DNA of 64,000 nucleotides from an uncultured bacterium (GTDB taxonomy: Bacteria > Krumholzibacteriota > Krumholzibacteriia > JACNKJ01), in the NCBI GenBank assembly GCA_964344565.1, contig CAYFNT010000012.1, forward strand, positions 30,648 to 94,647, read 5' to 3'. Shown piece by piece: positions 19,504 to 56,342 of the stretch (within the stretch, counting starts at the first letter, position 1; every line of letters begins with the position of its first letter). Under the pieces are notes generated by a model. The model searched no databases. It saw only the letters and a list, made by a program, of their open reading frames with translations, and was not told the DNA's origin. The position numbers and the translations under genes are program-made.

Positions 19504-19527
19504 TTTCGCAGCGGGCAAGAATCGGTG

Positions 19528-23191: not shown

Positions 23192-23261
23192 AATGATCTC
23201 GAAATCGAGGCGGGGTCTTCGATACCGGGCATTCAATACAATCGCAACCAAAGGTCCACCA

Positions 23262-38573: not shown

Positions 38574-41500
38574 ATGCGCAAGGCACTGCTTCTCCTGTTC
38601 CTCGCCGGGGCGAGTCTGGCTTCCACCGGCGTCCACACGACCTACCTCTGGCACATGCATCAGCCCATCTACTGGCCGGACGAGAGCGTTTGGACACCCG
38701 GACGTTACCAAACCGCCTACGAAACCCTCCTTGGCGGCTATTGCCAGAACGACCTGGCCGAGATCTTCGGCAAGGACGACCGCATCGGCGACTACCAATG
38801 GTATCCCCGGGATGCGGTGGCCAGCATGCTGGACCTGCCCGAGGCGGGAGCGCAGGTGTCCTTCGCGGGGGCGCTGGTCGAGAACATCGAGAGCCTGGCC
38901 GAGGCAGGCTGGGACGGTGGGGTCTACGCGAGCGACTGGACCTCGCACTACCGCGAGGCGAGGGGCTGGACCACGAGCGCCGGCGAGCCCAGGCTGGAGC
39001 CGCTGGTGGTGGGATTCCATCACGCCATCGCGCCGCTCATGGACGATGTGGCTTTCCGCATGGAGCTCGCCTGCGCCAAGGCCATCTACGACGAGGCCTG
39101 GGGCGACTCGAATTTCTCGCGAGGTTTCTTCCCCGCCGAGATGTGCTTCAGCGAGCGCCTCATTCCCGCCCTGGTCGACGCGGGCCTCGACTGGTCGGTG
39201 GTGGGGGATCTGCATATCGCGCGGGCCTGCGAGAACTATCCCTATCAGGCGAATCTGGACAACTGCGACCCGCCCAACCGGGCCGACCAGGTGAATCCGC
39301 CCCAGAGCGACTGGACCAACCACAGCATTCCACGGGGCGTGACGCTCAAAGTGCCCTACCCTTACGGCTTCACGCCGCACCGGGCCGAGTACGTGGACCC
39401 GTCCACTGGCGAGGTTTCGAACCTGGTGGTGGTGCCGGCCGCCAACGCCATGAGTTGGGACGAGGGTTACGGCATGTTCGGCACGGGTTCCATCGACGCC
39501 ATCGCCGGGAGCAACGATCCTGCGCATCCCATGCTGATTCTGCTGGCCCATGACGGCGACAACGCCTGGAGCGGCGGACACAGCTACTACTACGAATCGG
39601 TGCCCAACTTCTCCCACGCCGCCGCGGACGCGGGCTACACGCCGAGCACGGTGGCGACCTATCTCGAACATCATCCGGTTCCGCTCGACGACGTGGTGCA
39701 TGTGGAGGACGGCGGATGGGTGAACGCCGACGGCGACTTCGGCAGCCCGCAATTCATCAACTGGAACTGGCCGCCGGTGGACGCGGCGGGGAACTTCGAC
39801 ATACCCGGCGGATGGGCGGAGGACGAGCGCAACTGGGCCGTGCTCACGGCGGCGCAGAACGTGGTGGAATCCGCCGAGGCCGTGGGCGGCGCGCCCGATC
39901 CCGAGCGCGTGGTCTTCCCCTTGAGCGGGGCCAGCGCCGTGGAGCGGGCCTGGCATTTCCTGCTGGCGGGCTACGAGAGCGGCTACATGTACTACGGCTC
40001 GTCGCTGGACATGGAAGTGAAGGCCACCCTCGCCTGCAATGCGGCCCTCGAGGCGGCCCTGCCCCTGGCCGAGAGCGGTGCCGATATCGTAGCGCCCAGT
40101 ATCTGGCTGCCCCAACGCCTGCCATGGAATCCGGGCGGCAAGGGCGGCGGCAGCCTCTGGGGATATCCCGGCGGCGCGGGCGCGGACATGAGCCGCGACT
40201 TCTTCGTCTGGACCTTCATCCACGACATCTCGGGACTCTCGCGTGTCGAGATCATGGTCCGCGAGGATCTGGACGGCCACAACGATCCCGGCAGCCACGA
40301 CAACGAAATCTACGCGGGGGGGCCTGAGGTGGGCGCCTGGTCGGCCCTGCCCATGAACCATCGCGCGATGCCCCTGGGCGAGCCCTGGGACATCCCGGGC
40401 ATCGATTTCACGGTGCTGCCCGAGCGCATCGCCGACGAGTACTGGATCGAATTGACGGGCTACGGCGATGTGCTGCTGGACTACTACGTGGAGGCCGAGG
40501 ATTCTCTGGGCAACGTGAAGAGGAGTCCCATCCAGCACGTCTACGTGGGCACGGGCGACGCGGGCGGCGACGGTTCGGCATGGTGGGAGCCCGAACTTCC
40601 GGAAGCCGGCGATTGGATCACCGTCTACTACGATCCTGCCGGTGGACCCCTGGACGGCGCGGCGGAGATCATCCTGCACCACGGCATCAACGGCTGGCAG
40701 GAAGTAGGTGATACGCCCATGGACTGGAACCTCGTCGACGAGCACTGGCATAAGGGCATCCAGCTGCCTGAGCACGCGTCGAGTTTCGAGTTCGTCTTCC
40801 ACGACGGCCTCGGCAACTGGGACAACAACGGCGGCGCCGATTGGATCGTGCCCGTGAGCGGCGGAGGCGGCGGCTTCGTCATGGACGGCCTTCTCGATGA
40901 GGGCGTATTGCAGATCTCCGGCGACGGGATGAACCTCTGGGTCGCCCGCGAAGGCGACCAGCTCTATCTCGCGACCGAGGGTACCGGCGCGACGGGGCTC
41001 GATCACTTCCTCTTCCTGCTCGACGAACCGGGCGCTCCAGTTTCCGCACCCTGGGCCAAGGCGGGACAGGTTCTGCCCTGGGCCTACTATCTCGGGGCCG
41101 AGAGCTCCAACGGCTGGTTCGCTTGGTTCGATGCTGGCAGCAATGTGCAGATCGGTCCCGAGTTCTCATCGGCCCAGGGCGAGGTGCTCGAAGGATTGCT
41201 CGATCTCGACTCGCTCTTTGCATCCGTTCCGCCGGAAAGCCTCTGGGTGGCCGCCGCGGGATACGACGATCCCGACGCAGGTTCCCTGATTGCCCAGGCG
41301 CCCTTCGGCGACGGCGACGGCGACATGGAAGCGCACGAGTACTATCTACTCCTGGACCTGTCCACCCGGGTGGACGAGTCGCCCGAGGCGCCGCTCGCGG
41401 TCTCGCTTTATCCGAATCCCTTCAACCCGGATGTCCGCCTGAGTTTGGACAGCCCGGATGGTGACCTGACAATACGCATCTATGACCTGGAAGGCCGCTA

Positions 41501-41660
41501 CGTCGCGACCCTCCACGAGGGGCTTGCTGCGGAGGGTCGCCACATTTTGGGTTGGAACGGACAGAATGCGCGCGGGTACCCCTGCCCTAGCGGGATCTAC
41601 CTGTTCCAGATCAGCTGTGGAACGGAGGCTCGAAGCTTGAAGGGTCTGCTCCTGAAATAA
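38574..41660 (+). CDS. Secreted GH57-family alpha-glucan hydrolase (amylase/pullulanase-like) with starch-binding module(s) and T9SS type-A CTD
   Basis: Signal peptide MRKALLLLFLAGASLAS. GH57 motif TTYLWHMHQPIYWP. CBM25/26-like module (GDWITVYYDPAGGPLDGAAEIILHHGINGWQ). C-terminus YPNPFNPDVRLSL...IRIYDLEGRYVATL...SGIYLFQISCGTEARSLKGLLLK. The antisense 864-aa ORF is rejected. Confidence 0.8.
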   Translation: MRKALLLLFLAGASLASTGVHTTYLWHMHQPIYWPDESVWTPGRYQTAYETLLGGYCQNDLAEIFGKDDRIGDYQWYPRDAVASMLDLPEAGAQVSFAGALVENIESLAEAGWDGGVYASDWTSHYREARGWTTSAGEPRLEPLVVGFHHAIAPLMDDVAFRMELACAKAIYDEAWGDSNFSRGFFPAEMCFSERLIPALVDAGLDWSVVGDLHIARACENYPYQANLDNCDPPNRADQVNPPQSDWTNHSIPRGVTLKVPYPYGFTPHRAEYVDPSTGEVSNLVVVPAANAMSWDEGYGMFGTGSIDAIAGSNDPAHPMLILLAHDGDNAWSGGHSYYYESVPNFSHAAADAGYTPSTVATYLEHHPVPLDDVVHVEDGGWVNADGDFGSPQFINWNWPPVDAAGNFDIPGGWAEDERNWAVLTAAQNVVESAEAVGGAPDPERVVFPLSGASAVERAWHFLLAGYESGYMYYGSSLDMEVKATLACNAALEAALPLAESGADIVAPSIWLPQRLPWNPGGKGGGSLWGYPGGAGADMSRDFFVWTFIHDISGLSRVEIMVREDLDGHNDPGSHDNEIYAGGPEVGAWSALPMNHRAMPLGEPWDIPGIDFTVLPERIADEYWIELTGYGDVLLDYYVEAEDSLGNVKRSPIQHVYVGTGDAGGDGSAWWEPELPEAGDWITVYYDPAGGPLDGAAEIILHHGINGWQEVGDTPMDWNLVDEHWHKGIQLPEHASSFEFVFHDGLGNWDNNGGADWIVPVSGGGGGFVMDGLLDEGVLQISGDGMNLWVAREGDQLYLATEGTGATGLDHFLFLLDEPGAPVSAPWAKAGQVLPWAYYLGAESSNGWFAWFDAGSNVQIGPEFSSAQGEVLEGLLDLDSLFASVPPESLWVAAAGYDDPDAGSLIAQAPFGDGDGDMEAHEYYLLLDLSTRVDESPEAPLAVSLYPNPFNPDVRLSLDSPDGDLTIRIYDLEGRYVATLHEGLAAEGRHILGWNGQNARGYPCPSGIYLFQISCGTEARSLKGLLLK

Positions 41661-43203: not shown

Positions 43204-45273
43204 TCAGAGTTTTTCCAATCGCAGCCGATAGCCGAAGACCGCCGGCTTGCCCTTGCCGAGGGTCACGGGAACGCAGACGGCGATCCAGGAACCCTGGTAG
43301 ACGCGCTCGAAGCCGTCCTCGGACATGCTCACCGTTTCGATGGGCTCGCGCCAGATTCTCAAGCCCTCACCCTCGATGATCACCGACAGGCCCGACCACT
43401 CGTCGCGCAATTCGAAGGTCGAGGACGGCGACTCCCAGCCGCGACTGCGAAGCTGCGGCTCGTCGGCCTTCGCGCCGTCCACGAGGAAGTAGCGATCGTG
43501 GGCCTCCGGCGCCAGGAAGTTGAAGTTCCATCCCGAGGCGAAGGTGAGGTTCTTCTCGGTCTCGCCGATGTATTTGAGCTGGTAATCCACTTTCAGGGCG
43601 CGGCCCTCGTCGTCCCAGCGCAGGCTCTTTCGGATCTTCAGGCTGGCATCGTCCAGCTCGCCGGATGACCTCAGCCGCAATTCTCCCTGGGGATCCTCCG
43701 GAACTTCGGCCGAGAAACACCAGGATCGCAGATCGAGCAGGCTCGTCTCGTAGGGGGCCGAATCCGCGCCCGCCTCGTAGATTCGATCCTCGAGACCGGC
43801 TCGGGTGTGCGGATCGTAGACGAGCAGCTTCTCGAGGCCGCGCTCCTTGGCGGCCTTGACCTCGTGGATGGAGAGGGAACTGTCTTCGTCCGGCGAGAGC
43901 GCGTCGGCGACATCGCGATGATAGAATTCGCGGCGCCTGGAGAGCGTGTTGGTCACGGGAAAGGGTTTCTCGAGGAAATCGAGTTCCCTGACCGTACCGC
44001 CGTCGTCGGGCTTCAGGAAGAGCTGGGCATGGGGGCTCGTCCAGTGGATCTCCTCGCGGCCGTCCATGTCGAGGTCGCGCCGAGCCATCGAATAGCCGTT
44101 CGCGGCCAGCATGGCCTCGGCGCGCACGATGCGCTCGAAGACGGCTTGCCGGAGGTGGGGCAGGTAGAGTCCGCCGAAGAGACCGTGCCAGTAGGCGCAG
44201 TTGCACTGGGACTGTAGAACCTGGTCGCGAGCCTGCTCGCGCAGGGCATTGGGAATGCCCTCGGCCGTCTCGCAGCGTTCGCTGGCCAGGAGCATTCGCT
44301 TGTGCATCCAGTGGCTTTCCGGGTACTTCACGAAGAAGTTGCGCCAGAAACCGCCGCGCAGGAATGGGGCGTCATCGGGACGGTCGCCGAGGCTCAGGCC
44401 CAGATTGTGGAAGCGCTCGGCCGCCTTTTCCGGCAGGGACCACTCGCCCATCTCCTGATAACTTCCCGTGGGAAGGTAGGCGCTGCCGCGGGGCTTCCGT
44501 TCGTCGAGCCATTGGGAATAGAGCACCGTGCGCGCGAGTTCGCTCTCCTCGAGGTAGGCGAAGAGCTCGTCGAGGTAGCCTTGCTCGTAGCAGTGTTCAT
44601 GGGTGCCGCGCCAGAGTCCGAACTTCTCGCCGTCGTCGAAGAGCACGCCGAGACCGTTTTCCGGCAGGGCCGCGAGATGCTCGTTCAGCTCCGGGATAGG
44701 GCGGAAAGGGATGAGATAGCGCAGGGCCATGGAAACGGGAAAGATCGCTACGGCGCGGCCGCCTTCCTCGCTGAGGAAGTGTCCGTGCAGGGCCTCGGGC
44801 GCGAACCCCGCTCCGAGGAAATGACTGTCGTCGAGCAGGACATAGTCCACGCCCTCCTCGGCCAACACCCGAGGCAGGTGAGGTTCCCATATCCGCTCGG
44901 CCAGCCAGAAACCGCGGGGGCGAACGCCGAAGAGCTTCTCGACCTCGCCCTGCATGCGGCGGATCTGAGCGCGTTGATCCCGCTCGGGCAGCACGCTGAG
45001 GATGGGCTCCCAGTAGGCTCCGCCGACGACCTCGGCCTGTCCGGCCTCGACCAGAGCGCGCAGTCGTTTCAGATACTCGGGGCGCGCGTTCTTCATCCAC
45101 TCCAGCAGGGGGCCGCTGGTGTGGAAGCTCATCTTCACCGAAGGATGCTTCTCGAGTACGTCGAAGAAGGGCCCGTAGGCGCGCTGAAAAGCGTCTTCGA
45201 TCACATGACCGAAGTTGCCGACGGGCTGGTGGTTGTGCACGCCGAGGGCGAGAGAGGCGCGCGCCGGCATCAT
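43204..45273 (-). CDS. GH57-family 4-alpha-glucanotransferase/alpha-amylase-like enzyme (cytoplasmic)
   Basis: LALGVHNHQPVGNF (GH57 region I), no signal peptide, 689 aa. Last gene of a 7-gene minus-strand operon (43204-52694) with overlapping stop/start codons. Confidence 0.8.
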   Translation of the reverse strand: MMPARASLALGVHNHQPVGNFGHVIEDAFQRAYGPFFDVLEKHPSVKMSFHTSGPLLEWMKNARPEYLKRLRALVEAGQAEVVGGAYWEPILSVLPERDQRAQIRRMQGEVEKLFGVRPRGFWLAERIWEPHLPRVLAEEGVDYVLLDDSHFLGAGFAPEALHGHFLSEEGGRAVAIFPVSMALRYLIPFRPIPELNEHLAALPENGLGVLFDDGEKFGLWRGTHEHCYEQGYLDELFAYLEESELARTVLYSQWLDERKPRGSAYLPTGSYQEMGEWSLPEKAAERFHNLGLSLGDRPDDAPFLRGGFWRNFFVKYPESHWMHKRMLLASERCETAEGIPNALREQARDQVLQSQCNCAYWHGLFGGLYLPHLRQAVFERIVRAEAMLAANGYSMARRDLDMDGREEIHWTSPHAQLFLKPDDGGTVRELDFLEKPFPVTNTLSRRREFYHRDVADALSPDEDSSLSIHEVKAAKERGLEKLLVYDPHTRAGLEDRIYEAGADSAPYETSLLDLRSWCFSAEVPEDPQGELRLRSSGELDDASLKIRKSLRWDDEGRALKVDYQLKYIGETEKNLTFASGWNFNFLAPEAHDRYFLVDGAKADEPQLRSRGWESPSSTFELRDEWSGLSVIIEGEGLRIWREPIETVSMSEDGFERVYQGSWIAVCVPVTLGKGKPAVFGYRLRLEKL

Positions 45274-46661
45274 TCCCCGTCCTGGTCGATGGGGATGACG
45301 ACGACTGAGCCGGGACTCTCGATAGTGCCGGCGGGAATCGGATCTTCCATGGCAGTTTCATTGGCGGCCGCGAGAATTGCGTAAACACCCAATCTAGAAA
45401 GCACCGGCACACTTCCTTCTCCGCCAAGTTCCGGGTAGAGCAGACTCCAGGGGATGGCAAGCTCAAAGGCATCAGTGGAGCGGTTCATGTTTACCACTTC
45501 CACAGGCGTGGCGTACCCAGTACTCGGATCAACTACTGCCATGGTCGGTGGACTATCTCCGTATGCACAGGCGATGAACTCGATGCCGAAATCCGGAACG
45601 GATGAGAAATCGATGTTCTTGTTCATGTATGAGAGTGGGGCCGTGTAGTCCTCTTCCCCGTTTAGCAAACCAAGATCATTCAGGCCAGTCTGGGCACCAT
45701 AGTCTACGTCTAGATAGAAGAGGACGGCATTCGTCCAGGCGGTATTGAACTCACCTGAGAGACCCAAGTATAAAGTATCGCCAGTCCAACTGGTATGAAG
45801 GGAATCAAGCTCCCATCCCACTATCCACCAAGGGCTATCGACGTTGTTGCCGTCGAAGGCTTCCCAGCCCTCGTCGATGATTCCGTCGATAGTTCTCTCG
45901 TTCCAGGGTTGGTCGGGGTTGGCGCTCTCCAAGGGCTCGCCGAAAGCGAAATCGAAACTCGCAACCTGCCCGCCGGACACGCGCACCTGTTCGGTGAGGC
46001 TGCCGTATCCGTTGGCCGTGGCGATGAGCGTGTAGAGGCTGTCGGCGAGGTTGGCGAACTCGTAGTCGCCACCGTCGGCCTGGACCGTCCAGAGCTGGGC
46101 GTCGCCGTGTTCGTTCTCCGCCCAGATCTCGACGGTCGCCGCCGGCGGATCGGGACCCTCGAAGCTCATGCCGCCGGCGATGCCGCCGGTGGCCAGATCG
46201 AGTTCGTGGGAATAGCGCAGGGACTGGTCGTTCATCCAGATCTTGTAGAATCCCGGAGGACCTTCTGTGGAGATCACACAATGGGCGGGATCACCGCTCT
46301 GGAAGACCAGCAGGCCCTCTTCATCGGGGCTGGAGCCGAAATTCTCTGGTTCCCAACTCGCTCCCGTCGTGAACTTGAAACGGATCTCGGTGTCGCTCCC
46401 ATAATCCGATTCCAGTACCGAAACCCAGATCGACCAGACATAGTCTGCCTCAAGGCTCAGATAGTGTCTCGGATCCGTCGGATCCCAGTTCACGCCTGAG
46501 AAATCGCCATTGATTTGAATGTCGGGGAACTCGGATACGTACTCCGAAGGCGGCGCGCCCGGGGCCTCCAGGACGGGACCCTCCGGATTGGGCAGGCAGG
46601 CAGCCATGAGAACCAGCACGATGAAAGCGGGTGCGATGCGTTGCATGCTCACTCCGATCAC
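45270..46661 (-). CDS. Lipoprotein of unknown function (candidate surface glucan-binding protein)
   Basis: Signal peptide plus lipobox (AFIVLVLMAAC). 463 aa with no recognisable catalytic motifs. Operon context with CBM48 proteins. Confidence 0.55.
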   Translation of the reverse strand: MIGVSMQRIAPAFIVLVLMAACLPNPEGPVLEAPGAPPSEYVSEFPDIQINGDFSGVNWDPTDPRHYLSLEADYVWSIWVSVLESDYGSDTEIRFKFTTGASWEPENFGSSPDEEGLLVFQSGDPAHCVISTEGPPGFYKIWMNDQSLRYSHELDLATGGIAGGMSFEGPDPPAATVEIWAENEHGDAQLWTVQADGGDYEFANLADSLYTLIATANGYGSLTEQVRVSGGQVASFDFAFGEPLESANPDQPWNERTIDGIIDEGWEAFDGNNVDSPWWIVGWELDSLHTSWTGDTLYLGLSGEFNTAWTNAVLFYLDVDYGAQTGLNDLGLLNGEEDYTAPLSYMNKNIDFSSVPDFGIEFIACAYGDSPPTMAVVDPSTGYATPVEVVNMNRSTDAFELAIPWSLLYPELGGEGSVPVLSRLGVYAILAAANETAMEDPIPAGTIESPGSVVVIPIDQDGE

Positions 46662-47059
46662 TTCACCACGAGCAGTGAGTTGGTGAAGCCGCCCTCAGAG
46701 GCGGTGGATGGATTGTTGGGATCGGTGTTCCAGGTGTTGTTGTCGATGACGAACTTGTACTGGTAGCGACCGGGGGGAAGGTCCACAACGATGGTCCAGA
46801 TACCGTCCCCGTCGGCATCCTCCATGCGACCGATTGTATTGTCGTAGCGAGCGCTGGGGCTGGCCGTGCCACCCCACCAATTGCCCTCCCAGTTCCCCGC
46901 CAAGGTTACGATGGTCGCGGCGGGAGCCTCATAGGAGAACAATACGCCTCCGTCCACTGGATGGGGAGGTGGCAGGCGCTTCTTGACGATGTTCATGCTG
47001 CAGCCGGATGCCAGGACTAGCATCGGCAGAAGCAGGGGAAAGACTCTCTTAGAAATCAA
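46658..47059 (-). CDS. Small lipoprotein consisting of a CBM48/AMPK-beta-like glycogen-binding module
   Basis: Lipobox LVLASGC. Motif GRYQYKFVIDNNTWNTDPNNP (CBM48/CBM20-like YKF.VDG.W..DP). Confidence 0.65.
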   Translation of the reverse strand: MISKRVFPLLLPMLVLASGCSMNIVKKRLPPPHPVDGGVLFSYEAPAATIVTLAGNWEGNWWGGTASPSARYDNTIGRMEDADGDGIWTIVVDLPPGRYQYKFVIDNNTWNTDPNNPSTASEGGFTNSLLVVK

Positions 47060-49106
47060 AACGCGCCTCCAGGGTCAGCAACCTGGCCTCGCTGAGCGCC
47101 GTTTCAGCTCGATCGACCACGCGGCCGAGGCCCAGATAGGACTCCTTCATGGCCGTATCGTTCAGGCCGTTCTCGGCCAGAAACTCGCGTCTGCCATGGG
47201 GGAGGAACTGCTTGCTCAGGCCGTCGAGCCAGTAAGGATCGACACCCCAGCCCAGCGCGAGATAGCTGCGCTTGTTCAGGTGGTAGCTGATTTCCAGGAA
47301 GCTGGATCCGTAGCCGTGGGAGATGTCCAGGAAGTCCTGATCGTAGCGGGCCATCCTCTGATTGAACAGGAAGGACCATTCCTTGTGGAAACGCCAATCG
47401 AGCTCGACGATCACTTCCCAGTAGAGCGGTTTGCGATCGAGCCGAGTGGAGGCCACGGTGTGGGACAGGTTCAAGAGCATGTCGCCGGCGCTGCCCTCGT
47501 CCAGCAGCATCGCGATTCGCTGATTCAGCCGCGAGGTGCTTCCGTATCCCAAGGTGGTGTAGGCGTCCAGGGGAAGCTTGTCACCCGTGATCCAGCTGTT
47601 GCCGTATCCCACTTCGCCCGCGGCGAAGATGAACTGGTCACCCCAGCCAAGTCCCTCATCGTAGTAGTACTCCGACTGTTCGAGATCGATGCTGTAGTCC
47701 AGTCGTTTCGACTTCCAGGCGATCTCGCCTCCGTAGTGCAGCGCTCTCGCCGATAGCTCCTCGCCGCTTTCGACGAGGATGTTCCGATTCTCCTGGAAAC
47801 TGTGCTTGGCGGAGACGTGGATTCCGAAGGGGAGGAGCGTGTGGCCGGCGAACACGAGGCCGCGGGTCTCCTGGATCTTCCAACTCACTTCGGCCTGCTC
47901 GTTCCAGTTGAATTCCTCCCCCGCCCTGGCTTCCCACTGACGGTCCTTGGCCTGAAGCTTCGACTCGCCCTGGATTCCCTCGATCTCCAGGTTCGACTCG
48001 CCCAGTTCAACTCGATAGCTGAGCGCGTGGAGAAAGTTGTTCTGGACCGTGCGGTAGTAGTAGTAATCGGCAAGGCCGACCATTTCCCCGTCCCAATCCT
48101 GGTACCAGAGGTTGCCCGGCGTGAGGCCGCGGGTCGCATGCCCGAGATAGAGCACTCGGCCGGGACCCAGGCCCCGTGAGAGCTGAAGAACCCAATCGTC
48201 CCGGAAGCCATCGTCCTCGTTGCGATTGTAGTTGATCACATTGTCGAGTTCCTCGCCCTCCTCGACGGTCCGGTCAGGATCTCCCGGACGCCAGGGATTG
48301 GCCACGCTCGCATCGGCCACCATCGCCTTCAGGTCGAGGCCGAGGGGCAGGGTGGCGCGCAGGAGTCCGCCTCTCGCCCCGTAGCCATAGTCATAGCCGT
48401 ATGTGCTCACATCCCCGATCAGGGCGGCGGCTTCGTCGCTGAGGAATGTGGCTTCATTGTCGAATAGCGTGAAGGTGAAGGCCGGTCTCGTCAATACGAG
48501 GCGCGCGCGTTGGAAATTCAGGGCCGTCCGCCACATCTCCGACGGATTGGCGATGTTGTCGGCCGAAAGCTCGACGCGTCCCGCAAGGGATGGGTTGAGT
48601 TCCACGTCGAAAGCCATATTGAGGCTGTGAGTCGGTTTCTCGATGAGAACCCGATCGTTCTCGCTATCGAGAGCCTCGGCCTCGAGCCGGGCATAGTAGA
48701 ATCCGTCGACGTAGAGTTTGCTGTTGAGGGGCGAAGGCTGAGGCCCGCCGCCCGCTTCGACGACTTCGCCCTGAGCATCGACCTTGATCATCGAGTTGCC
48801 GTAGTCTCCGCCAGTCTGGGTGTTCGAAGGGTCGGTGATCCAGTTGCCGTCGACCACGAACTTGTACTGGTGTTCTCCCGGTCCGAGGGGAAGCACGAGA
48901 GTGAAAACGCCATCGCCATCGTTTCCAAAGATGTTGGCGTTGGTGTTCCAGCCGTTGTACTCACCCGCCCAGGCCACGTTGCTCGCGCCGTCATCCCGGT
49001 AGGTGAAGAGGATGCCGTCATCGACCTTCCTGGGGAAATCGGAAGCCAGGGAAGGCAAGGCCAATAGGAGCAGGGCCAGTGACAGTAGTTTGCTCAGTCT
49101 GTTCAT
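47049..49106 (-). CDS. Outer-membrane beta-barrel protein with N-terminal CBM48 glycogen-binding module (candidate alpha-glucan porin)
   Basis: Real start ATG 49106 (MNRLSKLLSLALLLLALPSLASD signal peptide); the 762-aa ORF-track version has a spurious extension. CBM48 motif GPGEHQYKFVVDGNWITDPSNT. About 580 aa with alternating amphipathic segments ending ...ARLLTLEARFDF, a C-terminal Phe as in OMPs. Confidence 0.6.
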   Translation of the reverse strand: MNRLSKLLSLALLLLALPSLASDFPRKVDDGILFTYRDDGASNVAWAGEYNGWNTNANIFGNDGDGVFTLVLPLGPGEHQYKFVVDGNWITDPSNTQTGGDYGNSMIKVDAQGEVVEAGGGPQPSPLNSKLYVDGFYYARLEAEALDSENDRVLIEKPTHSLNMAFDVELNPSLAGRVELSADNIANPSEMWRTALNFQRARLVLTRPAFTFTLFDNEATFLSDEAAALIGDVSTYGYDYGYGARGGLLRATLPLGLDLKAMVADASVANPWRPGDPDRTVEEGEELDNVINYNRNEDDGFRDDWVLQLSRGLGPGRVLYLGHATRGLTPGNLWYQDWDGEMVGLADYYYYRTVQNNFLHALSYRVELGESNLEIEGIQGESKLQAKDRQWEARAGEEFNWNEQAEVSWKIQETRGLVFAGHTLLPFGIHVSAKHSFQENRNILVESGEELSARALHYGGEIAWKSKRLDYSIDLEQSEYYYDEGLGWGDQFIFAAGEVGYGNSWITGDKLPLDAYTTLGYGSTSRLNQRIAMLLDEGSAGDMLLNLSHTVASTRLDRKPLYWEVIVELDWRFHKEWSFLFNQRMARYDQDFLDISHGYGSSFLEISYHLNKRSYLALGWGVDPYWLDGLSKQFLPHGRREFLAENGLNDTAMKESYLGLGRVVDRAETALSEARLLTLEARFDF

Positions 49107-49114
49107 GTCGGACC

Positions 49115-50650
49115 TCAGAACCATGTCTTGAGGGTGAGCTTGAATTCGTCGCGCATCCGTCCACCCGACTCGAAATCGCTGTCGTTCACCAATTCGCCCC
49201 AGTCCCCGTAGTTTTCGGGACCATAGGAGAGGAAGAATTCGAGATTGTCGTGAGGACGGTATTGAATCTGTGTGTAGAGCATCGAACGCGCCTCGATGGC
49301 GTCGCTGGCCACCATGAACCTGTTGTACCATTTCCACTGCGTGGTGAGGTTCAGAGTGGTTTCGAGTCCATAGATGCGTTTCTCGCTGCGGGTGTCCCAG
49401 TCCTTGATCTTGAACTGGGTTTTCAGCCAGGCCAGGCGATTCTCCACGATGAGTTCCACGAGCCAGTCGTAGTGCTTATAGTGGACGCCCTGCCAGGTAT
49501 CGTCGAAACGCTGGTGGCTGAGGTTCACCTTGAAGCCGTTGATGAACTCGACGTAGACGTTCTGGTTCATCCAGCGTTTCGGATCATTGGTCAAGAGCAG
49601 CGTGCGACCATCATCGATGGAATCGTAGATGTAACGATCCACGCGCCGCTTGGCGCCCCATTCGAGTGTGTAGGTGATCGCCCTCTGAGGCAGGATGTAG
49701 TAGCTGTGAAGGTTGTAGCCGACCTCGTTGGTGGCGTCGCCGCCCTGATAGTTCTTGTAGTCGGGCCCCAGGCGCCAGTAGCTGAGATTGACAGTGTAGT
49801 GGCCGAGTGCGTGATTGCCCATCTGGAAGTTGCGCATCTCGGCTTTGATCGCCGCGTCCCTTGGGACGGCGGCCTCCAGCCATGCGAAGGGCTTGCCGCC
49901 GTGCCAATCGGGTAGGTCCCAATGATCGTCGCCGATGGTCTCGGAGGGCACCCGGCTGGCAGCGTACTGGGCCGAAAAATCGGCCACGGGGCTGACCCAT
50001 AGGAAGTCGCCGCTGATCACGCTGTTGTACTGCTTTGTGAAGTCGGTGTCGACGTCGGCGTAGTTCTTCCGAACATAGGACATGCCGAGGTAGGATCCCG
50101 AATCACCCAAACGCCGGGTTCCCCGGAGGAGATGGACGTCATCGGTGACTTCGATGGCATCGGTTCCGTAGTCATCCTGCGAGGAAAAATCGCTGAAGAC
50201 GTAGACACCGTACCAGGGATCGGCCCACCCCTCCATGCGCAGGCCTTGGGCGTTGTCGCCGTCCTTGACGTTGTCTTCCTTGACCAACTCCAGCAGATGG
50301 TTTCCGATCCAGAAGCGCTTTTCGCGGGTGAAGAGGAAGGCTTCGGCGGCCTTGGGCCCGTCCTCGACGCGATACTTGAGATGCCCCTCGTAGAGGAAGA
50401 AGGCCGGTTGTGGCGCTGAGTTGTTCCAGCGGTCCCAGCGCGAACCCAGCTTTGCCCAGAGTTCGCCGCGATGGGACAGGTTCGCCCGCAGCTTCATTTC
50501 GAAGTAATTGCTGGGGCGCCAGAGGTCCCAGCTCTGGTCGTCGTTGACCCGCGTGCCGCCCACATTGCTTTCCCAGTAGCCCTCGAGCACCGTGGCTGCC
50601 TGCGCTGAGACCGAGCCGAGAAGAAGGATCAGAAGGAGCGCTCGCTTCAT
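49115..50650 (-). CDS. Outer-membrane beta-barrel protein (C-terminal ...FKLTLKTWF), unknown specificity
   Basis: Signal peptide MKRALLLILLLGSVSAQA. Tyr/Trp/Asn-rich alternating pattern and a terminal aromatic residue. Confidence 0.55.
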   Translation of the reverse strand: MKRALLLILLLGSVSAQAATVLEGYWESNVGGTRVNDDQSWDLWRPSNYFEMKLRANLSHRGELWAKLGSRWDRWNNSAPQPAFFLYEGHLKYRVEDGPKAAEAFLFTREKRFWIGNHLLELVKEDNVKDGDNAQGLRMEGWADPWYGVYVFSDFSSQDDYGTDAIEVTDDVHLLRGTRRLGDSGSYLGMSYVRKNYADVDTDFTKQYNSVISGDFLWVSPVADFSAQYAASRVPSETIGDDHWDLPDWHGGKPFAWLEAAVPRDAAIKAEMRNFQMGNHALGHYTVNLSYWRLGPDYKNYQGGDATNEVGYNLHSYYILPQRAITYTLEWGAKRRVDRYIYDSIDDGRTLLLTNDPKRWMNQNVYVEFINGFKVNLSHQRFDDTWQGVHYKHYDWLVELIVENRLAWLKTQFKIKDWDTRSEKRIYGLETTLNLTTQWKWYNRFMVASDAIEARSMLYTQIQYRPHDNLEFFLSYGPENYGDWGELVNDSDFESGGRMRDEFKLTLKTWF

Positions 50651-51516
50651 CTCGCTACCTCCCGGCTACCGAAGATGGGTGAGAGCGAGAAGGTTAGGGT
50701 GTTGCCCAGGCGCCCACGGCTCTGGAATGCGAAGTCCATGTTCCAGCGTGCTGCCCTCAGGCCGAAGCCGGCGGTGGCGTAGCGCCCGGTGGTGCCGCCG
50801 CGAATGTGGAAGGCGTCGAAGAAGCGAAGCTCGGAGCCGAAGATGAGTTCGGCTTCCCGTCCGGGGATCGACCTGTACTCGAAGAGCAAGGCGAGATTGC
50901 TCCTCCAGAGGTAGGTGGCGGCCAGGCGGCTCTCGCTTCTCGCCATGCCCCAGGATTCCCCTCCATCGAGCATCTCGATCTCGCTGGCTGCAAGACTCTT
51001 CGCCAGGATCGCGAAGGACAGGTTCCTGCTGTAGGGAAGCAGGACAGAGGCGTCGAAGGTGAAGCCGCGCATGGAATCGATGAGGTCGCTGCCGTCGTAG
51101 CCGGGTACGTCGAGGATCAGACCCCGGAACCGCATGCCAATGCCCAGGTTCCGTCCTAGGAACTTGATACTCCAACCCGCCCCCAGGCTGATCTCGTCTT
51201 CCACCCAGAGATCGCTCAGTCCGTATCGATGCCAGGCGACCGAGAGTCCTCCCGAGCGATAGGGCTGCAGCCAGGCCGCCGTCGATGAACGCACGCCACT
51301 GCCGTACCAGTCGTGCAGCAGGAAGTGTGCGCCTGCTCCCTGCAGATAGGGGAGCCGCGCCGGATTCGCGAGGGATGAGGCCGCATCGGTCTCGATACCC
51401 GTGGCGTTGCCTCCCAGGGCCTCCGAACGTCCGTCCAGTACGATCTGCGAGAAGAGCTCGGCTTGAGTCGATGAAGCGAGGGCCAGTACCCCGAGAAGGA
51501 GCAAGAGTCTCTTCAT
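50647..51516 (-). CDS. Putative PorP/SprF-family T9SS outer-membrane protein (cognate partner of the adjacent type-B CTD cargo)
   Basis: Real start ATG 51516 (MKRLLLLLGVLALASSTQA). N-terminus ELFSQIVLDG...SLANPARLPYLQGAG resembles the PorP/SprF FSQY...NPAyaG signature. Size (about 290 aa) and beta-rich composition fit. It lies immediately downstream of a type-B CTD protein. Confidence 0.45.
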   Translation of the reverse strand: MKRLLLLLGVLALASSTQAELFSQIVLDGRSEALGGNATGIETDAASSLANPARLPYLQGAGAHFLLHDWYGSGVRSSTAAWLQPYRSGGLSVAWHRYGLSDLWVEDEISLGAGWSIKFLGRNLGIGMRFRGLILDVPGYDGSDLIDSMRGFTFDASVLLPYSRNLSFAILAKSLAASEIEMLDGGESWGMARSESRLAATYLWRSNLALLFEYRSIPGREAELIFGSELRFFDAFHIRGGTTGRYATAGFGLRAARWNMDFAFQSRGRLGNTLTFSLSPIFGSREVAR

Positions 51517-52694
51517 CGCAGAACCGCCATGGGAAGGAGGAAACGGTCCACGCCCTCGATCTCCACTCGCGCGTAGTAGAGGCCGGGTTCCTGCAATTCG
51601 CGCTCCTTGTTGCGCCCCTCCCAATAGAAGTCCAGCTGAACATCCGAATCGCCCAGAACGACGAACTCTCGCGTGAGGAAATGGATGCGTCGACCCGTGC
51701 CGTCGTAGACGTCTCCGAAGATTCGATCATGCACCAGTTCGAGAATCGACTCGGTAGTGAGGTTGTGGGAGATGAACATTCGGAAGTGGGCTATATCATG
51801 CAGCCCGTCGCCGTTGGGGCTTATGGCATCGACGAGGCTTTCGGGCTCGGTGGCGCCGATGCTCGAATTGCCCGGATTGAAGAAGAACTCCATGGGTGGG
51901 ATATCGCTGATGACGTCCGCGCTGCGCCACGAGGGTGCCACTCCGATGTCGGGCAACCCATCCAGGTCGCGGTCGGGTCGGAGGATGATGAAATTGTCAA
52001 GGAAGGCGATCTCCCCGGAGTTCTCTGGCATTCCGGGCAGATCGAAGAAACTCGAATTGTCGGGTGCGCAGTCCGGGCCTGACTGTCCGTCGGAACCCGA
52101 AACCACGACCGCGACCAGCCCGATCTCGCGTCCGGCGGGGATGAGCCCGTCGTGGCCGGGGAAGACCTCGGCCCAGGGGATCGCCGCCTCCATCGAGGCG
52201 AAGGGTCGCCCTTGGTTGAAACTTGCAGAAGCGATGAATTGGCTGTTCACCACCAATTGCTCTGCGCTGGTCTGGTCGCCGGTCTGCACTCGCCACATCT
52301 GCGGATCGGTATTCGTGTCCCAGGTCGCGAGGAAGAGGTCTGGAGCCTGGTTCAGGAAGCGCAGCTTTCGTCGCCAGCCCGTGGTGACCAGGTCCATGTC
52401 GGGGATGCCGCTGGAAGGCGTGGTGTCGAAGAACAACATGATGTTGTTGCCCCAGCATCGACCGTCGACGGCGACGAAAAGGGAGTCGGTGTTCCAGGTG
52501 GCACGAATCTGATTGATGTCGTTGTTTTCGCCCCAGCGGGAATCGAAGGCGAGTTCTTCCCCGGGGTTGAAGAACACTTCCTCGGACTGGAAGTCCGAAC
52601 TGTCGCCGTCGATGACTATGCTGCGATCGGTAGCCGTGTAAGCCTGGGCCGAAATCGCAAGTCCGATCAAGAGGCAGGTGGACAATCGCCGCAT
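51513..52694 (-). CDS. Secreted protein with T9SS type-B C-terminal sorting domain (gliding-motility-type CTD); N-terminal putative carbohydrate-binding domain
   Basis: Signal peptide MRRLSTCLLIGLAISAQA. C-terminus ISPNGDGLHDIAHFRMF...DRIFGDVYDGTGRRIHF...FYWEGRNKERELQEPGLYYARVEIEG matches the type-B CTD pattern (SPNGDG.ND.F.I...I.....G..V...........W.G.......PG.Y.Y...). First gene of the operon. Confidence 0.6.
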   Translation of the reverse strand: MRRLSTCLLIGLAISAQAYTATDRSIVIDGDSSDFQSEEVFFNPGEELAFDSRWGENNDINQIRATWNTDSLFVAVDGRCWGNNIMLFFDTTPSSGIPDMDLVTTGWRRKLRFLNQAPDLFLATWDTNTDPQMWRVQTGDQTSAEQLVVNSQFIASASFNQGRPFASMEAAIPWAEVFPGHDGLIPAGREIGLVAVVVSGSDGQSGPDCAPDNSSFFDLPGMPENSGEIAFLDNFIILRPDRDLDGLPDIGVAPSWRSADVISDIPPMEFFFNPGNSSIGATEPESLVDAISPNGDGLHDIAHFRMFISHNLTTESILELVHDRIFGDVYDGTGRRIHFLTREFVVLGDSDVQLDFYWEGRNKERELQEPGLYYARVEIEGVDRFLLPMAVLR

Positions 52695-52801
52695 GATCCC
52701 TCCCAGGAAAGCGAATCGACAAGCTAACAGATCGCCTATCCATCATCAAGGGTGGTCGACACGGGCCTGGGAACTTGGTAGGAATAGGGGCGGGAGGCCC
52801 C

Positions 52802-55078
52802 ATGAGAACCACCCTGATCGCTCTGATCTCGATACTGTCGGCGGTCCACGCCGAGACTCCGCTGGAAGGCGGCGTGCCCTTCGCGCCCCTGGCGCCCGGT
52901 GAGCTGAGCCGCGAGGTCATCCTGTCCGGCGGCGGGGCCACGCACTTCGCCTGCGAGAGCCACGACGAGCACCGCCGCGCCTACCACGGTCTCTACAATC
53001 GCATGCACGAGTTCCTAGACGGCTGGCGATTCCGCGTGGGGGAGCGGATCCTTCATCCCGCTGACGGTTCCCTCGAACTCTGGCCCTGGACCTTCCATCG
53101 CAGCTACGAAGGCGGGCCGATCGAATCGCTCTTCATGCCGAGGGGTATTCCCGGCGTGATCGTCTCGCTCTCCGGCGCGGCCGGAAACTGCGAGTTCGAA
53201 CCCCACATCGACATGCGTTTCATATGGGACGTTCCCCGCCCCGACTACGAGGTCGAATGGAACGAACGGCTGGGCGCGCTCTTCATCCGCCGAGTCGAAT
53301 TCGAACCGCCGGCGGAAGTGCCACGAGTCGTCGCCATCGTGCCGGGATTCTGGTCCACCTGGCGCTACGCCGACGCCTGGCTTCCCAACGACTACACCCG
53401 CGACAAGGCGCGCCGGGCCATGGAGAAGGCGAACCCATGGATCCCGGGCAGCTTTCACCTGGAGCTTTACGAGGGCGACGTGGCCGATTTCGCCGTGGGC
53501 CTCGGCGCCGATGAACGCGAGGCCTTCGCCGTGGCCCGCGATCTGCTCGACAGGCAGGATCTGCTGCGCGCCGAAGCCCGCGACCACTTCACGGAGCTCT
53601 CGACACGCGTCCCCCGCACCAGTGATGAACGCCTGAACAAGGCTCTCACCTGGGCGCGCTACTCCATGGACCAGCTCATCATGAACTCGCGGGGACCGGG
53701 CATCTACGCGGGCTACCACTGGTTCACCAACTACTGGGGACGCGACACCTTCATCTCGCTGCCGGGCGCCTGCCTGGTCAGCGGCGACTTCGAGCGGGCG
53801 CGCGCCATCCTGGCGAGTTTCGCAGACTATCAGCTCACCGATCCGTCGAATCCGCGCGAAGGGCGCCTGCCCAACATCGTGAATCCCGACAATCTGCAGT
53901 ACGCGGGCGTGGACGGTACCTGGTGGTGGGTGAGGGCCCTGCGCATCTATCTGGACTACACCCGCGACCTGGACTTCATGCGCGAGATGCGTCCGGTGGT
54001 GGACCGGGCGATTGCGGGCGCGCTGCGTCACGCGGTCGACGAACACGGCCTGCTCACCCACGGCGATGGCGAGACCTGGATGGACGCCGGCGGCGAGGTC
54101 AATCCGCGCTCGCCCCGCGGCAACCGCGCCGTGGAAGTCGAGGCCCTGTGGATCGACGGCCTAGATTCGGCCGCCCTTTTCGCCCGTGTGGACGGTGACT
54201 CGGCCGCGATGCGCCGCTACCAGACCCTCGCCGACAAGGCGCGGGCATCATTTCTCGAGTTGTACACCCGGGTGGACGGATTGGGACTCGCCGACCATCT
54301 GAATGTTGACGGAAGTCAGGATCTGCAGATCCGGCCGAATCAGCTGCTTGCGATTACGATTCCAAGAGGCTCTCCACGGAAGAACAGGATCTGGGGAGCG
54401 GAATGGATTCCCGAGGCGATCGAACTCGATGTCGTGAAAACGGTGATGCAGCATCTCGTCAGGGAAAACGGAGTCACTAGTTTGAGCCCATCGGATGATT
54501 CGTGGATTCCTCGACATGTGGATTGGACCAGAAGTCATTTCGATGACGCATACCATAACGGTGACGTGTGGCTATGGCTTTCTGGCGCTGCGATGGAAGC
54601 TAGAGAGGTGGCGAATTGGAGTTTCTATCATCGCACGAGGGAGCAAATGAATGTCCTGATAGAGGACACCATTGAGCATGGGGCCCTAGGTAGCCTCCGG
54701 GAAATCCGTGATGGAGAGCTTTCCCTGAAGGAGGACTATGGGGGCGCTACCAGCCAGGCCTGGTCACTCGCGGAGTTGCTTCGGGTTCAGTTCGAGTCGG
54801 TTCTAGGAATCAAACCTCTCCTCCTGGACAGGTTAGTCCTGTGGGATCCGGCTTCGGTCGGTCTGCATGCCCGAGTATTCTTGGGTGGTCAGGAATGGAG
54901 TGTTTCGCTGGAGGAAGAGAAGCCTTCGAATATTGTACACGTGTACAATGGGTGGAAGTACGTAGGTGGAACATGGCCCGACGGAATCAATGGCTGGGAA
55001 GTACAATCTCCCAATCGTAGCCCAGAGACATTGACCGAGCAGGGGCTGCCCTACAGGGAGTCCGGTGAGGTTTGGTAG
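52802..55078 (+). CDS. Secreted amylo-alpha-1,6-glucosidase / glycogen-debranching enzyme (GDE_C family)
   Basis: Start ATG 52802 (MRTTLIALISILSAVHA signal peptide, SD GGGAGG). GDE_C motifs GYHWFTNYWGRDTFISLPG and YHNGDVWLWLSG. The 3' 830 nt have markedly lower GC (about 52%). Contains the ATTGTACACGTGTACAAT palindrome at 54932-54949. Confidence 0.8.
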   Translation: MRTTLIALISILSAVHAETPLEGGVPFAPLAPGELSREVILSGGGATHFACESHDEHRRAYHGLYNRMHEFLDGWRFRVGERILHPADGSLELWPWTFHRSYEGGPIESLFMPRGIPGVIVSLSGAAGNCEFEPHIDMRFIWDVPRPDYEVEWNERLGALFIRRVEFEPPAEVPRVVAIVPGFWSTWRYADAWLPNDYTRDKARRAMEKANPWIPGSFHLELYEGDVADFAVGLGADEREAFAVARDLLDRQDLLRAEARDHFTELSTRVPRTSDERLNKALTWARYSMDQLIMNSRGPGIYAGYHWFTNYWGRDTFISLPGACLVSGDFERARAILASFADYQLTDPSNPREGRLPNIVNPDNLQYAGVDGTWWWVRALRIYLDYTRDLDFMREMRPVVDRAIAGALRHAVDEHGLLTHGDGETWMDAGGEVNPRSPRGNRAVEVEALWIDGLDSAALFARVDGDSAAMRRYQTLADKARASFLELYTRVDGLGLADHLNVDGSQDLQIRPNQLLAITIPRGSPRKNRIWGAEWIPEAIELDVVKTVMQHLVRENGVTSLSPSDDSWIPRHVDWTRSHFDDAYHNGDVWLWLSGAAMEAREVANWSFYHRTREQMNVLIEDTIEHGALGSLREIRDGELSLKEDYGGATSQAWSLAELLRVQFESVLGIKPLLLDRLVLWDPASVGLHARVFLGGQEWSVSLEEEKPSNIVHVYNGWKYVGGTWPDGINGWEVQSPNRSPETLTEQGLPYRESGEVW
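54932..54949. promoter_or_regulatory. 18-bp perfect palindrome ATTGTACACGTGTACAAT (candidate LacI-family operator) about 150 nt upstream of the malE-like gene
   Basis: Perfect palindrome with the TG-N4-CG-N4-CA core. It also contains a TACAAT -10-like hexamer. It lies inside the 3' end of the GDE gene and upstream of the ABC transporter genes. Confidence 0.5.
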
Positions 55079-55097
55079 ATTCGCAAGGAGAGTTACT

Positions 55098-56342
55098 ATG
55101 AAGAGAGTTCTCGCAATGCTGCCTTCAGTGGCTGTTCTTCTACTTCTCGCCTGCGGCGGCGGAGGGTCCGACGGCAAGCTCTTCATCTGGGAGCAGATGG
55201 ATCCCAGCGAACAGGAACTGCTCGATGAACACCTGGCGCGTTTCATGGAGATGCATCCGGACATCGTCGTCGAGCGCGTGCACTACGAAACCGAGCAGTT
55301 ACGCACCCAGTTCCAGAACGCGGCCCTCGCCGGCGCGGGCCCCGAACTTGTCTACGGACCCGCCGACCAGGTGGGGCCCTTCTCGACCATGGGGCTCATC
55401 GAACCCCTGGACCAGCACTTCAGCCAGGCCAAGCTCGACTCCTTCTACACCGACGCACTGCCTCGCCTCGCCCGCCGGGGCGACGATACGGCCAAGCTCT
55501 GGTGCCTGCCCGACCAGCTGGGGAATCACCTCACGCTATGCTTTAACAAGGCGATGGTACCCCATGCGCCCCAATCGTTTAAGCACTTGGTTGAGATGGG
55601 AAAATACTGGACCAAGGACGAGGACGGCGACGGCCGCCCCGAGACTTACGGCCTGGTCTTCAACCAGAAGGAGCCCTTCTGGCTGGTGCCCTTCCTGGGC
55701 GGATTCGGAGGTTGGGTGGTGGACGAGCAGGGCAACCCGACCCTCGACAGCCGGGCCATGGCCAGCGCCCTCTCCTATGTGCAGTTCCTCAAGTTCGACG
55801 AGGGCATCATGCCGCGCGAGGCCGACTACGAGGTGGCCGACGCGCTTTTCAAGGAGGGCAAGGCGGCCTTCATCATCAACGGACCCTGGTCCTGGCAGCA
55901 GTATCTCGACGCGGGAATCGACCTGGGCCTGACGCCCATCCCGACGCTATTCGGCGGGGGATGGCCCGTACCCATGGTCAGCGCCAAGGGCTACAGCCTC
56001 AACGCCAACCTGCGGGGCGAGAAGCGCGAGCAGGCCCTGGCCCTGCTCGACTACCTCACCAGCGAAGCGGTGCAGGTGGAGAAATCCGCGGCCATGGGCA
56101 TGATCCCCAGCCGCAAGAGCGCGGCCGAAAAGGCCGAGGGCAGCCATCCACTGGTGGGGCCCAGTCGCGCGCAGATCGAGAAGGGGCGGGCCATGCCGGT
56201 CATCCCCGAGATGCGGGCCATCTGGGACGTCATGCGTCCGGCATACCAGGAGGTTCTGGGCAATCGGCTGGAACCTCGCGAGGCGGCCGTCCAGATGCAG
56301 GAGCAGGTAATCAAGAAGATCGAGGAAATGGGCGGAAACTAG
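55098..56342 (+). CDS. ABC transporter substrate-binding lipoprotein, MalE-like (maltose/maltodextrin family 1 SBP)
   Basis: ATG 55098 with SD AAGGAGAG. Lipobox LLLLACGGGGS. SBP_bac_1-type sequence. Confidence 0.8.
   Translation: MKRVLAMLPSVAVLLLLACGGGGSDGKLFIWEQMDPSEQELLDEHLARFMEMHPDIVVERVHYETEQLRTQFQNAALAGAGPELVYGPADQVGPFSTMGLIEPLDQHFSQAKLDSFYTDALPRLARRGDDTAKLWCLPDQLGNHLTLCFNKAMVPHAPQSFKHLVEMGKYWTKDEDGDGRPETYGLVFNQKEPFWLVPFLGGFGGWVVDEQGNPTLDSRAMASALSYVQFLKFDEGIMPREADYEVADALFKEGKAAFIINGPWSWQQYLDAGIDLGLTPIPTLFGGGWPVPMVSAKGYSLNANLRGEKREQALALLDYLTSEAVQVEKSAAMGMIPSRKSAAEKAEGSHPLVGPSRAQIEKGRAMPVIPEMRAIWDVMRPAYQEVLGNRLEPREAAVQMQEQVIKKIEEMGGN

Follow-up and report, generated by a model that had tools for sequence, protein, structure and literature searches.

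A T9SS-style C-terminal-domain protein and a PorV/PorQ-like barrel head a conserved six-gene cassette in an alpha-glucan utilisation locus of Krumholzibacteriota

Type IX secretion system (T9SS) cargo with a type-A C-terminal domain (CTD) exits the translocon bound to PorV, whereas type-B cargo is bound to alternative carriers (PMC10994853). In the SprB-SprF and PG1035-PorP systems the cargo gene adjoins the gene of its own FadL-fold barrel, which in this logic keeps the cargo, left uncleaved, attached to the cell surface (Gorasia et al., 2022, PMC9143113); PorP-like proteins and PorV share one common fold (PMC9143113). In the attachment complex of Porphyromonas gingivalis, the barrels of the PorQ-PorZ and PorV-PorU pairs bind immunoglobulin (Ig)-like CTDs. 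The CTDs of PorU and PorZ are described as non-cleaved (PMC11285876). In the starch utilisation system (Sus) of Bacteroidota, with its SusC/D transporter and the surface proteins SusE/F/G, a single locus unites glycan-binding proteins and lipoproteins of the cell surface with outer-membrane proteins, amylases and the downstream uptake and catabolism of alpha-glucan. Here we describe a gene pair, termed A393 and B290, that combines features of these systems. It is located on a stretch of 64,000 nucleotides of contig CAYFNT010000012.1 (assembly GCA_964344565.1) from an uncultured bacterium of the Krumholzibacteriota, which is referred to as the window and has a G+C content of about 63%. The pair heads a six-gene cassette in an alpha-glucan utilisation locus, a context that had been overlooked in an initial annotation of the two genes.

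A393 and B290 adjoin each other in the same manner as the cargo and barrel genes of SprB-SprF and PG1035-PorP. By hidden Markov model (HMM) comparison, however, they fall outside the type-B and PorP families: the CTD is type-A/FlgD-Ig-like, resembling the CTDs of PorU and PorZ, and the barrel is PorV/PorQ-like. The two genes and the domains of the first are as follows.

A393, 51513..52694, minus strand: secreted protein of 393 amino acids (aa) with an SPI signal peptide, MRRLSTCLLIGLAISAQA.
A393 N-domain, residues ~23-245, nucleotides 51960-52628, minus strand: modelled beta-sandwich resembling carbohydrate-binding module (CBM) families CBM9 and CBM74.
A393 CTD, residues ~285-393, nucleotides 51516-51842, minus strand: FlgD-Ig/type-A-like T9SS CTD, joined to the N-domain by a linker.
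B290, 50647..51516, minus strand: PorV/PorQ-lineage outer-membrane barrel of 289 aa with a 14-stranded FadL fold and an N-terminal hatch containing NPA.

Both genes exist where the initial annotation had placed them, and the motifs quoted there (ISPNGDGLHDIAHF, GRRIHF, WEGRN and PGLYYARVE in A393, FSQ...NPA in B290) are all found in the translations. The position and barrel nature given for the second gene hold as well; its length needs correction from 290 to 289 aa, as its ATG start lies at 51516 and its end at 50647. The stop codon of A393 and the start codon of B290 share the sequence ATGA (4 bp overlap), and the stop of B290 overlaps the start of the third gene, C511, likewise in ATGA. Because of these overlaps, A393, B290 and C511 are translationally coupled. 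At the far end of the gene string, the start of a GH57 (glycoside hydrolase family 57) gene overlaps the stop of F463, the sixth cassette gene. A large protein collection contains 39 homologues of A393, relatives of which are present in 52 species-level genomes, and AlphaFold2 yields confident models for A393 (predicted local distance difference test score, pLDDT, 86.2) and for B290 (pLDDT 83.4, predicted template modelling score 0.81). Based on the homologues, the conserved gene order and these models, A393 and B290 are real genes rather than chance open reading frames (ORFs). A promoter scan of the operon displays no promoter-like site, and terminator-like sites occur in it at chance level.

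The CTD of A393 is an Ig-like beta-sandwich at the extreme C-terminus that is homologous to type-A CTDs, and structure comparison displays a fold resembling the CTDs of PorU, PorZ and mirolase. It had been annotated as a CTD of type B, the gliding-motility class. On A393 itself, however, the type-B model CHU_C (PF13585) reaches only 13.8 bits (E 0.065), below its cut-off of 27, the type-B model TIGR04131 gives no match at E<=1, and the type-A models TIGR04183 and PF18962 give none at E<=0.1. In a scan of 35 members of the A393 family against Pfam and NCBIfam models, the NCBIfam model of the PorU C-terminal region matches 22, Pfam FlgD_ig 18, the type-A model TIGR04183 13 (best E 2.9e-4), CHU_C 10 (best E 1.5e-7) and Por_Secre_tail (PF18962) 3 of them, while TIGR04131 matches a single member. 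Matches of the family profile to sequences of the PDB are confined to the C-terminal domain, namely to the C5a peptidase of streptococci (E 3e-5), FlgD of the flagellum (E 1e-4), the PorU CTD (E 0.006) and the PorZ CTD (E 0.18). Since C5a peptidase and FlgD are also matched, the pattern SPNGDG...WDG.D..G..V..G.Y is a generic FlgD-Ig signature and not diagnostic of type B.

A profile of the CTD of the A393 family furthermore finds the extreme C-termini of three other proteins encoded in the window, at 23193-26627 (E 4e-12), 38574-41660 (E 2e-8) and 6706-7917 (E 2e-7). The A393 CTD thus belongs to the same type-A/FlgD-Ig-like class as the other predicted cargo of this organism. All three had been listed as type-A CTD proteins. 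With TIGR04183 (cut-off 23 bits), this is borne out for the first two (29.6 and 25.3 bits), and the third lies just below, at a marginal 21.6 bits; the ORF of the first starts at 23193 and not at 23262. The CTD of A393 contains an insertion, HNLTTESILELVHDRIFG (residues ~305-327, with a modelled helix at 314-324), that is shared with a relative of 90% identity only and is lacking from the other family members. This insertion probably explains why A393 itself fails to match the CTD models.

B290 had been annotated as a member of the PorP/SprF family, but neither PF11751 nor TIGR03519 matches it at E<=1. For a family-wide view, every member of a 29-member alignment built from syntenic genes was scanned. 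The PorV/PorQ family model NF033709 matches all 29 (best E 2.5e-20), PorV2 (NF052325) 23, PorV (NF033710) and PorQ (NF033711) 18 each, and Pfam TraF_2 and Toluene_X 16 each. The PorP/SprF models are found in a minority: TIGR03519 in 8 members (best E 1.6e-7) and PF11751 in 7 (best E 3.8e-7). The best solved relative of the family profile is PorV of Flavobacterium johnsoniae (6h3i_F, E 7.9e-12), and Foldseek comparison of the B290 model also ranks PorV first, including the CTD-substrate-bound structure 8gl6 (TMq 0.75). The AlphaFold2 model has an N-terminal hatch with 14 long strands behind it; a 14-stranded FadL-type barrel is common to PorV, FadL and PorP/SprF and does not discriminate among them. 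The same holds for the FSQ...NPA motif, to which the initial annotation had drawn attention: NPA is nearly invariant in the B290 family and serves as hatch motif throughout the FadL superfamily (FadL/OMPP1/TodX, PF03349). By family-wide sequence similarity, and with PorV as its closest solved fold, B290 belongs to the PorV/PorQ lineage. By the refutation rule of the initial annotation itself, sub-threshold HMM scores for each of the two families, the type-B and PorP/SprF assignment is refuted, and it is rejected at the family level on the HMM tests of the window proteins and their relatives.

Among described proteins, PorV of F. johnsoniae (PDB 6H3I, 8GL6), itself a 14-stranded FadL-fold barrel, is thus the best match to B290 by sequence profile as well as by structure. 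B290 differs from PorV in being ~60-110 residues shorter, in scoring below all curated cut-offs and in occurring outside Bacteroidota. Unlike PorV, moreover, it is encoded with, and translationally coupled to, a single specific cargo within a cassette for carbohydrate utilisation. The B290 profile also retrieves PorV-family barrels in other settings, directly next to genes of large secreted proteins. The PorV-Pfam-positive protein P0048 (L059 10001-14291) adjoins the gene of a 1,064-aa FG-GAP protein with Por_Secre_tail, and the gene of P0050 (L061 7365-11044), which has no precomputed Pfam match, overlaps that of an 879-aa S8 peptidase by 4 bp. A cargo gene next to its own PorV-like barrel may hence be a recurrent arrangement.

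The pairing of cargo and barrel, which the initial annotation had emphasised, is strongly conserved. Across 52 species-level loci, and counting those with enough downstream sequence, B290 directly follows A393 in 45 of 47. The remaining cassette genes are similarly persistent, with C511 present in 40/43 loci, D684 in 38/42, E133 in 39/42 and F463 in 31/37; an amylase or a solute-binding protein is located within 10 kb in 35/51. The loci are labelled Cloacimonadota, Eisenbacteria and Krumholzibacteriota, with additional metagenome-assembled genomes (MAGs) labelled Gemmatimonadota, and none of the 52 carries a Bacteroidota label. The labelled relatives thereby agree with the earlier view of a non-Bacteroidota organism. 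The same gene order is seen in a Krumholzibacteriota MAG and in a Cloacimonadales genome of 3.7 Mb, the A393 homologue of which has only 40% identity. One 4.4-kb contig carrying A393-B290-C511 (L018, QMVM01000200.1) is binned in a MAG named 'Methanosarcinales archaeon'; the contig is almost certainly bacterial and binned in error.

The co-occurrence of the CTD and B290 was evaluated in those A393 homologues that match the N-domain strongly and have sufficient sequence downstream. Where the CTD is present, B290 is directly downstream (45/45), and where the CTD is absent, B290 is absent as well (2/2), with no mixed case. Together with the translational coupling, this 45/0/0/2 distribution suggests that the A393 CTD and B290 are a physical pair, and it lends indirect support to a binding of the CTD by B290.

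Within the A393 family, conservation is highest in the N-domain, where numerous Trp (among them W54, W67, W81, W107 and W125) and Asp residues are invariant, and its model displays a beta-sandwich of the CBM9/CBM74 type. It is modular and rare. A second, divergent copy is found by the N-domain HMM at residues 272-443 of F463 (E 3.7e-8); other genomes have the domain as part of CTD proteins of 1,356-1,511 aa that adjoin GH13 genes. An exhaustive HMMER search of 1.84 billion representative proteins returns 184 N-domain matches at E<=1e-3, of which 64 reach E<=1e-10. The locus context and this recurrence suggest binding of alpha-glucan as a putative function. The cassette carries the N-domain module twice, with two anchoring routes, the CTD in A393 and a lipid anchor in F463. 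Compared with Sas6/CBM74 of the Ruminococcus bromii amylosome and with CBM9, the N-domain displays no detectable sequence similarity, and it is smaller than CBM74 (~220 versus ~330-357 aa). Sas6 is anchored by a dockerin in a Gram-positive organism, whereas A393 would be anchored by its CTD and a barrel in a diderm.

Downstream of the pair, the gene string continues on the same strand with the other cassette genes and a GH57 gene; further genes of the locus are located on both sides.

C511, 49115..50650, minus strand: secreted protein of 511 aa, undescribed family.
D684, 47049..49106, minus strand: secreted protein of 685 aa with an N-terminal CBM48, a domain that binds glycogen or starch, and an undescribed C-terminal part of ~570 aa.
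E133, 46658..47059, minus strand: small CBM48 lipoprotein with lipobox LASG|C (Pfam AMPK1_CBM, CBM_48, X25).
F463, 45270..46661, minus strand: lipoprotein with lipobox MAA|C, a CarboxypepD_reg-like domain and an A393-type N-domain at 272-443.
GH57 alpha-amylase/4-alpha-glucanotransferase, 43204..45273, minus strand: last gene of the string (Pfam Glyco_hydro_57, AmyA-A_glucT_m, AmyA-gluTrfs_C).
GH57 + CBM53 enzyme, 38574..41660, plus strand: secreted, with a type-A CTD (by TIGR04183, see above).
GDE_C amylo-1,6-glucosidase, 52775-55078, plus strand: divergent from the cassette (Pfam/NCBIfam, as for the genes below).
Solute-binding protein, 55065-56342, plus strand: divergent from the cassette.
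GH13 enzyme with three CBM48 domains, 56414-59311, plus strand: divergent from the cassette.
Two ATP-binding cassette (ABC) permeases, 59321-61062, plus strand: divergent from the cassette.
Phosphorylase-like gene, 61131-62804, minus strand.

The combination of CBM48, GH13, GH57, GDE and phosphorylase-like proteins with a sugar ABC transporter identifies this region as an alpha-glucan (starch/glycogen) utilisation locus. The divergent alpha-glucan neighbour genes are also found in L004, L006 and most other loci. The CTD-bearing enzyme at 38574-41660 is a probable T9SS-exported amylase of the locus. Between its gene and the cassette lies an ORF of 486 aa (41711-43171, plus strand) with no Pfam match, which is called as a 475-aa gene on a public contig. 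On a public contig (L001), E133 is called with 121 aa, and the true start of E133 may thus lie slightly downstream of 47059. In the Cloacimonadota loci (e.g. L006 5211-7568), SBP_bac_1 is fused to BPD_transp_1 in a protein of ~750-800 aa, unlike in the window, where solute-binding protein and permease are separate genes.

C511 has a signal peptide, no Cys, 15% aromatic residues and the end ...KTWF, and displays no Pfam, NCBIfam or PDB sequence match, its family profile included. D684 likewise has a signal peptide, no Cys and a terminal Phe; it ends in ...LTLEARFDF, which is beta-signal-like with alternating hydrophobic residues. Its CBM48 is recognised by AMPK1_CBM with 49.9 bits, a scan of the D684 family returns only CBM48, X25 and CBM53, and PDB matches cover the CBM48 alone. 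A comparison of C511 with D684 and B290 by hhalign displays only weak C-terminal similarity (probability 22%) and a match of the signal peptides, too little to claim that they are related. Judged from these sequence features, C511 and D684 are candidate outer-membrane barrels or channels. In no cassette protein or family is there a match to Plug, TonB_dep_Rec or SusD. The Sus system has a SusC-like TonB-dependent transporter and SusD, whereas the cassette has neither; unlike in Sus, its outer-membrane parts are undescribed families and a PorV-like barrel, and uptake over the inner membrane is by an ABC transporter.

Based on this dataset, we hypothesize, at somewhat better than even odds in our judgement, that A393 and B290 head a module of six genes by which members of the Fibrobacteres-Chlorobi-Bacteroidetes (FCB) superphylum other than Bacteroidota capture alpha-glucan at the outer membrane, with A393 exported by a T9SS and B290 acting as its dedicated PorV-like carrier. 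According to this model, A393 would reach the periplasm by Sec, and its Ig-like CTD would direct its passage over the outer membrane through the T9SS. At the cell surface, the CBM9/CBM74-like N-domain would bind alpha-glucan, while B290, as carrier or anchor, would bind the CTD and keep A393 on the outer membrane, in a role analogous to that of PorV for type-A cargo, PorQ for PorZ and SprF for SprB. Translational coupling would fix the stoichiometry of A393 and B290. The secreted GH13 and GH57 amylases of the locus would cut the polymer to oligosaccharides; C511, D684 with its CBM48, E133 and F463 would bind glucan and hand the oligosaccharides to the periplasm, C511 and D684 as barrels conducting them inward, E133 and F463 as glucan-binding lipoproteins at the surface or in the periplasm. 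From there, the solute-binding protein and the ABC transporter would import the products.

Several observations weigh against this model. Of the CTD models, CHU_C, with the match mentioned above, is the only one that the A393 protein of the window itself reaches at E<=0.1, and FlgD-Ig domains also occur in proteins without any connection to a T9SS. B290 remains below the curated cut-offs of the PorV-type models, with 44 versus 90 bits for PorV/PorQ (NF033709), 21.1 versus 250 for PorV (NF033710) and 17.7 versus 220 for PorQ (NF033711). Both of the CTD-less A393 homologues lack the whole cassette and not B290 alone. Residues 23-245 of A393 have no Pfam, NCBIfam or PDB sequence match, even when the family profile is used, and the N-domain has no sequence-level tie to any CBM family; glucan binding is a putative function. 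The barrel call for C511 and D684 is drawn from their termini and composition, and in a count of amphipathic period-2 segments the soluble control A393 scores as high as the barrel control B290, so that the count does not tell barrels apart from soluble beta proteins. Finally, no T9SS core gene (SprA/Sov, PorK/L/M/N, PorU/V) is present among the genes of the 64-kb window. A 'complete T9SS repertoire', as had been claimed in the initial annotation, can therefore not be concluded. A complete T9SS in this organism is unproven, though it would be unsurprising, since its possible presence is reported for further FCB phyla, Cloacimonadota, Gemmatimonadetes and Fibrobacterota among them (PMC11285876).

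The most serious alternative, to which we assign a small but appreciable probability, is that B290 is a channel in the style of FadL or CymA for a maltodextrin, a cyclodextrin or another small molecule, with no role in a T9SS, and that the Ig domain of A393 is a spacer. The shared barrel fold and the generic nature of the FlgD-Ig signature are compatible with such a function. FadL channels, on the other hand, carry hydrophobic molecules and not sugars. The sequence profiles point to PorV and not to FadL: the match of the B290 profile to PorV in the PDB (E 7.9e-12) compares with E 0.17 for TbuX, and the PorV-type models of NCBIfam that match 29/29 family members compare with FadL in 1/29. In addition, the Ig domain of A393 always occupies the extreme C-terminus and shares homology with bona fide type-A-like CTDs of the same genome, and the coupling and the co-occurrence of CTD and B290 suggest a physical pair. 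If B290 were a FadL-like channel, the locus would still be an undescribed starch-utilisation cassette, and the link to the T9SS would be lost.

According to a second alternative, B290 is the general housekeeping PorV of the organism, serving all type-A cargo and adjoining A393 by chance. PorV is indeed the closest family and structure, and several other CTD cargoes in the window would need a PorV. B290 is, however, much shorter than PorV and reaches 21 bits against the equivalog cut-off of 250; it is locked into the starch cassette in 45/47 genomes rather than residing beside porU, and its profile additionally retrieves separate, longer PorV-Pfam-positive proteins in other contexts (P0048, P0049; 344-349 aa). 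A housekeeping function is improbable, more so than a channel. The original proposal of a type-B cargo with a cognate PorP/SprF-family protein, despite a gene order that mirrors sprB-sprF, the common fold of PorP-like proteins and PorV (PMC9143113), the weak CHU_C match of A393 and the PorP matches in 7-8/29 relatives (best ~1e-7), appears very unlikely, as both window proteins fail the family tests, TIGR04131 is outnumbered 1/35 to 13/35 by TIGR04183, the PorV/PorQ model has far better E-values than the PorP models, and the CTD with its generic motif is homologous to the TIGR04183-positive CTDs of the same organism. What endures of that proposal is that A393 ends in a T9SS-style Ig-like CTD and that the next gene encodes a 14-stranded FadL-type barrel from the family that carries CTD proteins. 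Observed here are the folds and relationships of the protein families, the gene structure with its coupling and conserved order, and the alpha-glucan setting; the need of A393 for a T9SS, the contact between its CTD and B290, the affinity of the N-domain for glucan, and the roles of C511 and D684 as barrels and channels are what we infer.

Other genes of the window provide some context. Two of the predicted T9SS cargoes are unusual: the one at 23193-26627 (plus strand) combines CotH kinase, lamin-tail and beta-helix domains with its type-A CTD, and that at 6706-7917 (plus strand), with the marginal CTD, is a class-II glutamine amidotransferase (EgtC-like). A protein of 3,053 aa (10357-19518, minus strand) contains a GT2 domain, a glucoamylase-like domain and the supersandwich and catalytic domains of GH94, an architecture which we take to be that of a cyclic beta-1,2-glucan synthase. 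The gene of an MttB-like trimethylamine methyltransferase homologue adjoins that of a B12-dependent methionine-synthase activation-domain protein (596-2062 and 3-623, both minus strand), and HdrA, Kor-type and Fe-S oxidoreductases are encoded at 29-38 kb; together these genes indicate an anaerobic lifestyle. An HdrA2-like heterodisulfide reductase gene (29095-31590, minus strand) is split into ORFs of 199 and 626 aa by a single in-frame TGA (30991-30993). This codon falls where HdrA has a conserved Cys or selenocysteine, and it probably encodes selenocysteine instead of breaking the gene.

The idea of T9SS cargo with its own carrier is already known, and a T9SS has been proposed in FCB phyla other than Bacteroidota. 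New are a type-A-like CTD protein that is paired with a PorV-type barrel, a CBM-like domain of rare occurrence, and a six-gene cassette free of SusC and SusD that is conserved over at least three candidate phyla. The cassette was not found described in open-access papers and preprints on the T9SS or starch loci of Krumholzibacteriota, Eisenbacteria and Cloacimonadota, or on PorV-like paralogues; earlier work is possible.

The uncultured Cloacimonadota, Eisenbacteria and Krumholzibacteriota are common inhabitants of sediments, soils and anaerobic digesters. More tentatively than for the pair itself, and at less than even odds, we speculate that the cassette is an undescribed, SusC/D-independent machine of these phyla for the capture and import of starch or glycogen, in which a CTD and a minimal PorV-like barrel would tether a new starch-binding module, two unknown outer-membrane proteins, one of them fused to CBM48, would form the conduit, and cognate cargo-carrier pairing would be an ancestral and general feature of the T9SS, not one peculiar to type-B cargo of Bacteroidota. 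The N-domain of A393 is a candidate for a new CBM family. A module of almost wholly unannotated families would thereby provide a concrete, testable model of starch and glycogen capture without SusC/D. If this model is true, the rule that each cargo has its own FadL-type carrier, so far demonstrated solely with PorP-like proteins and type-B CTDs of Bacteroidota, would extend to PorV-type barrels, to type-A-like CTDs and to other phyla.

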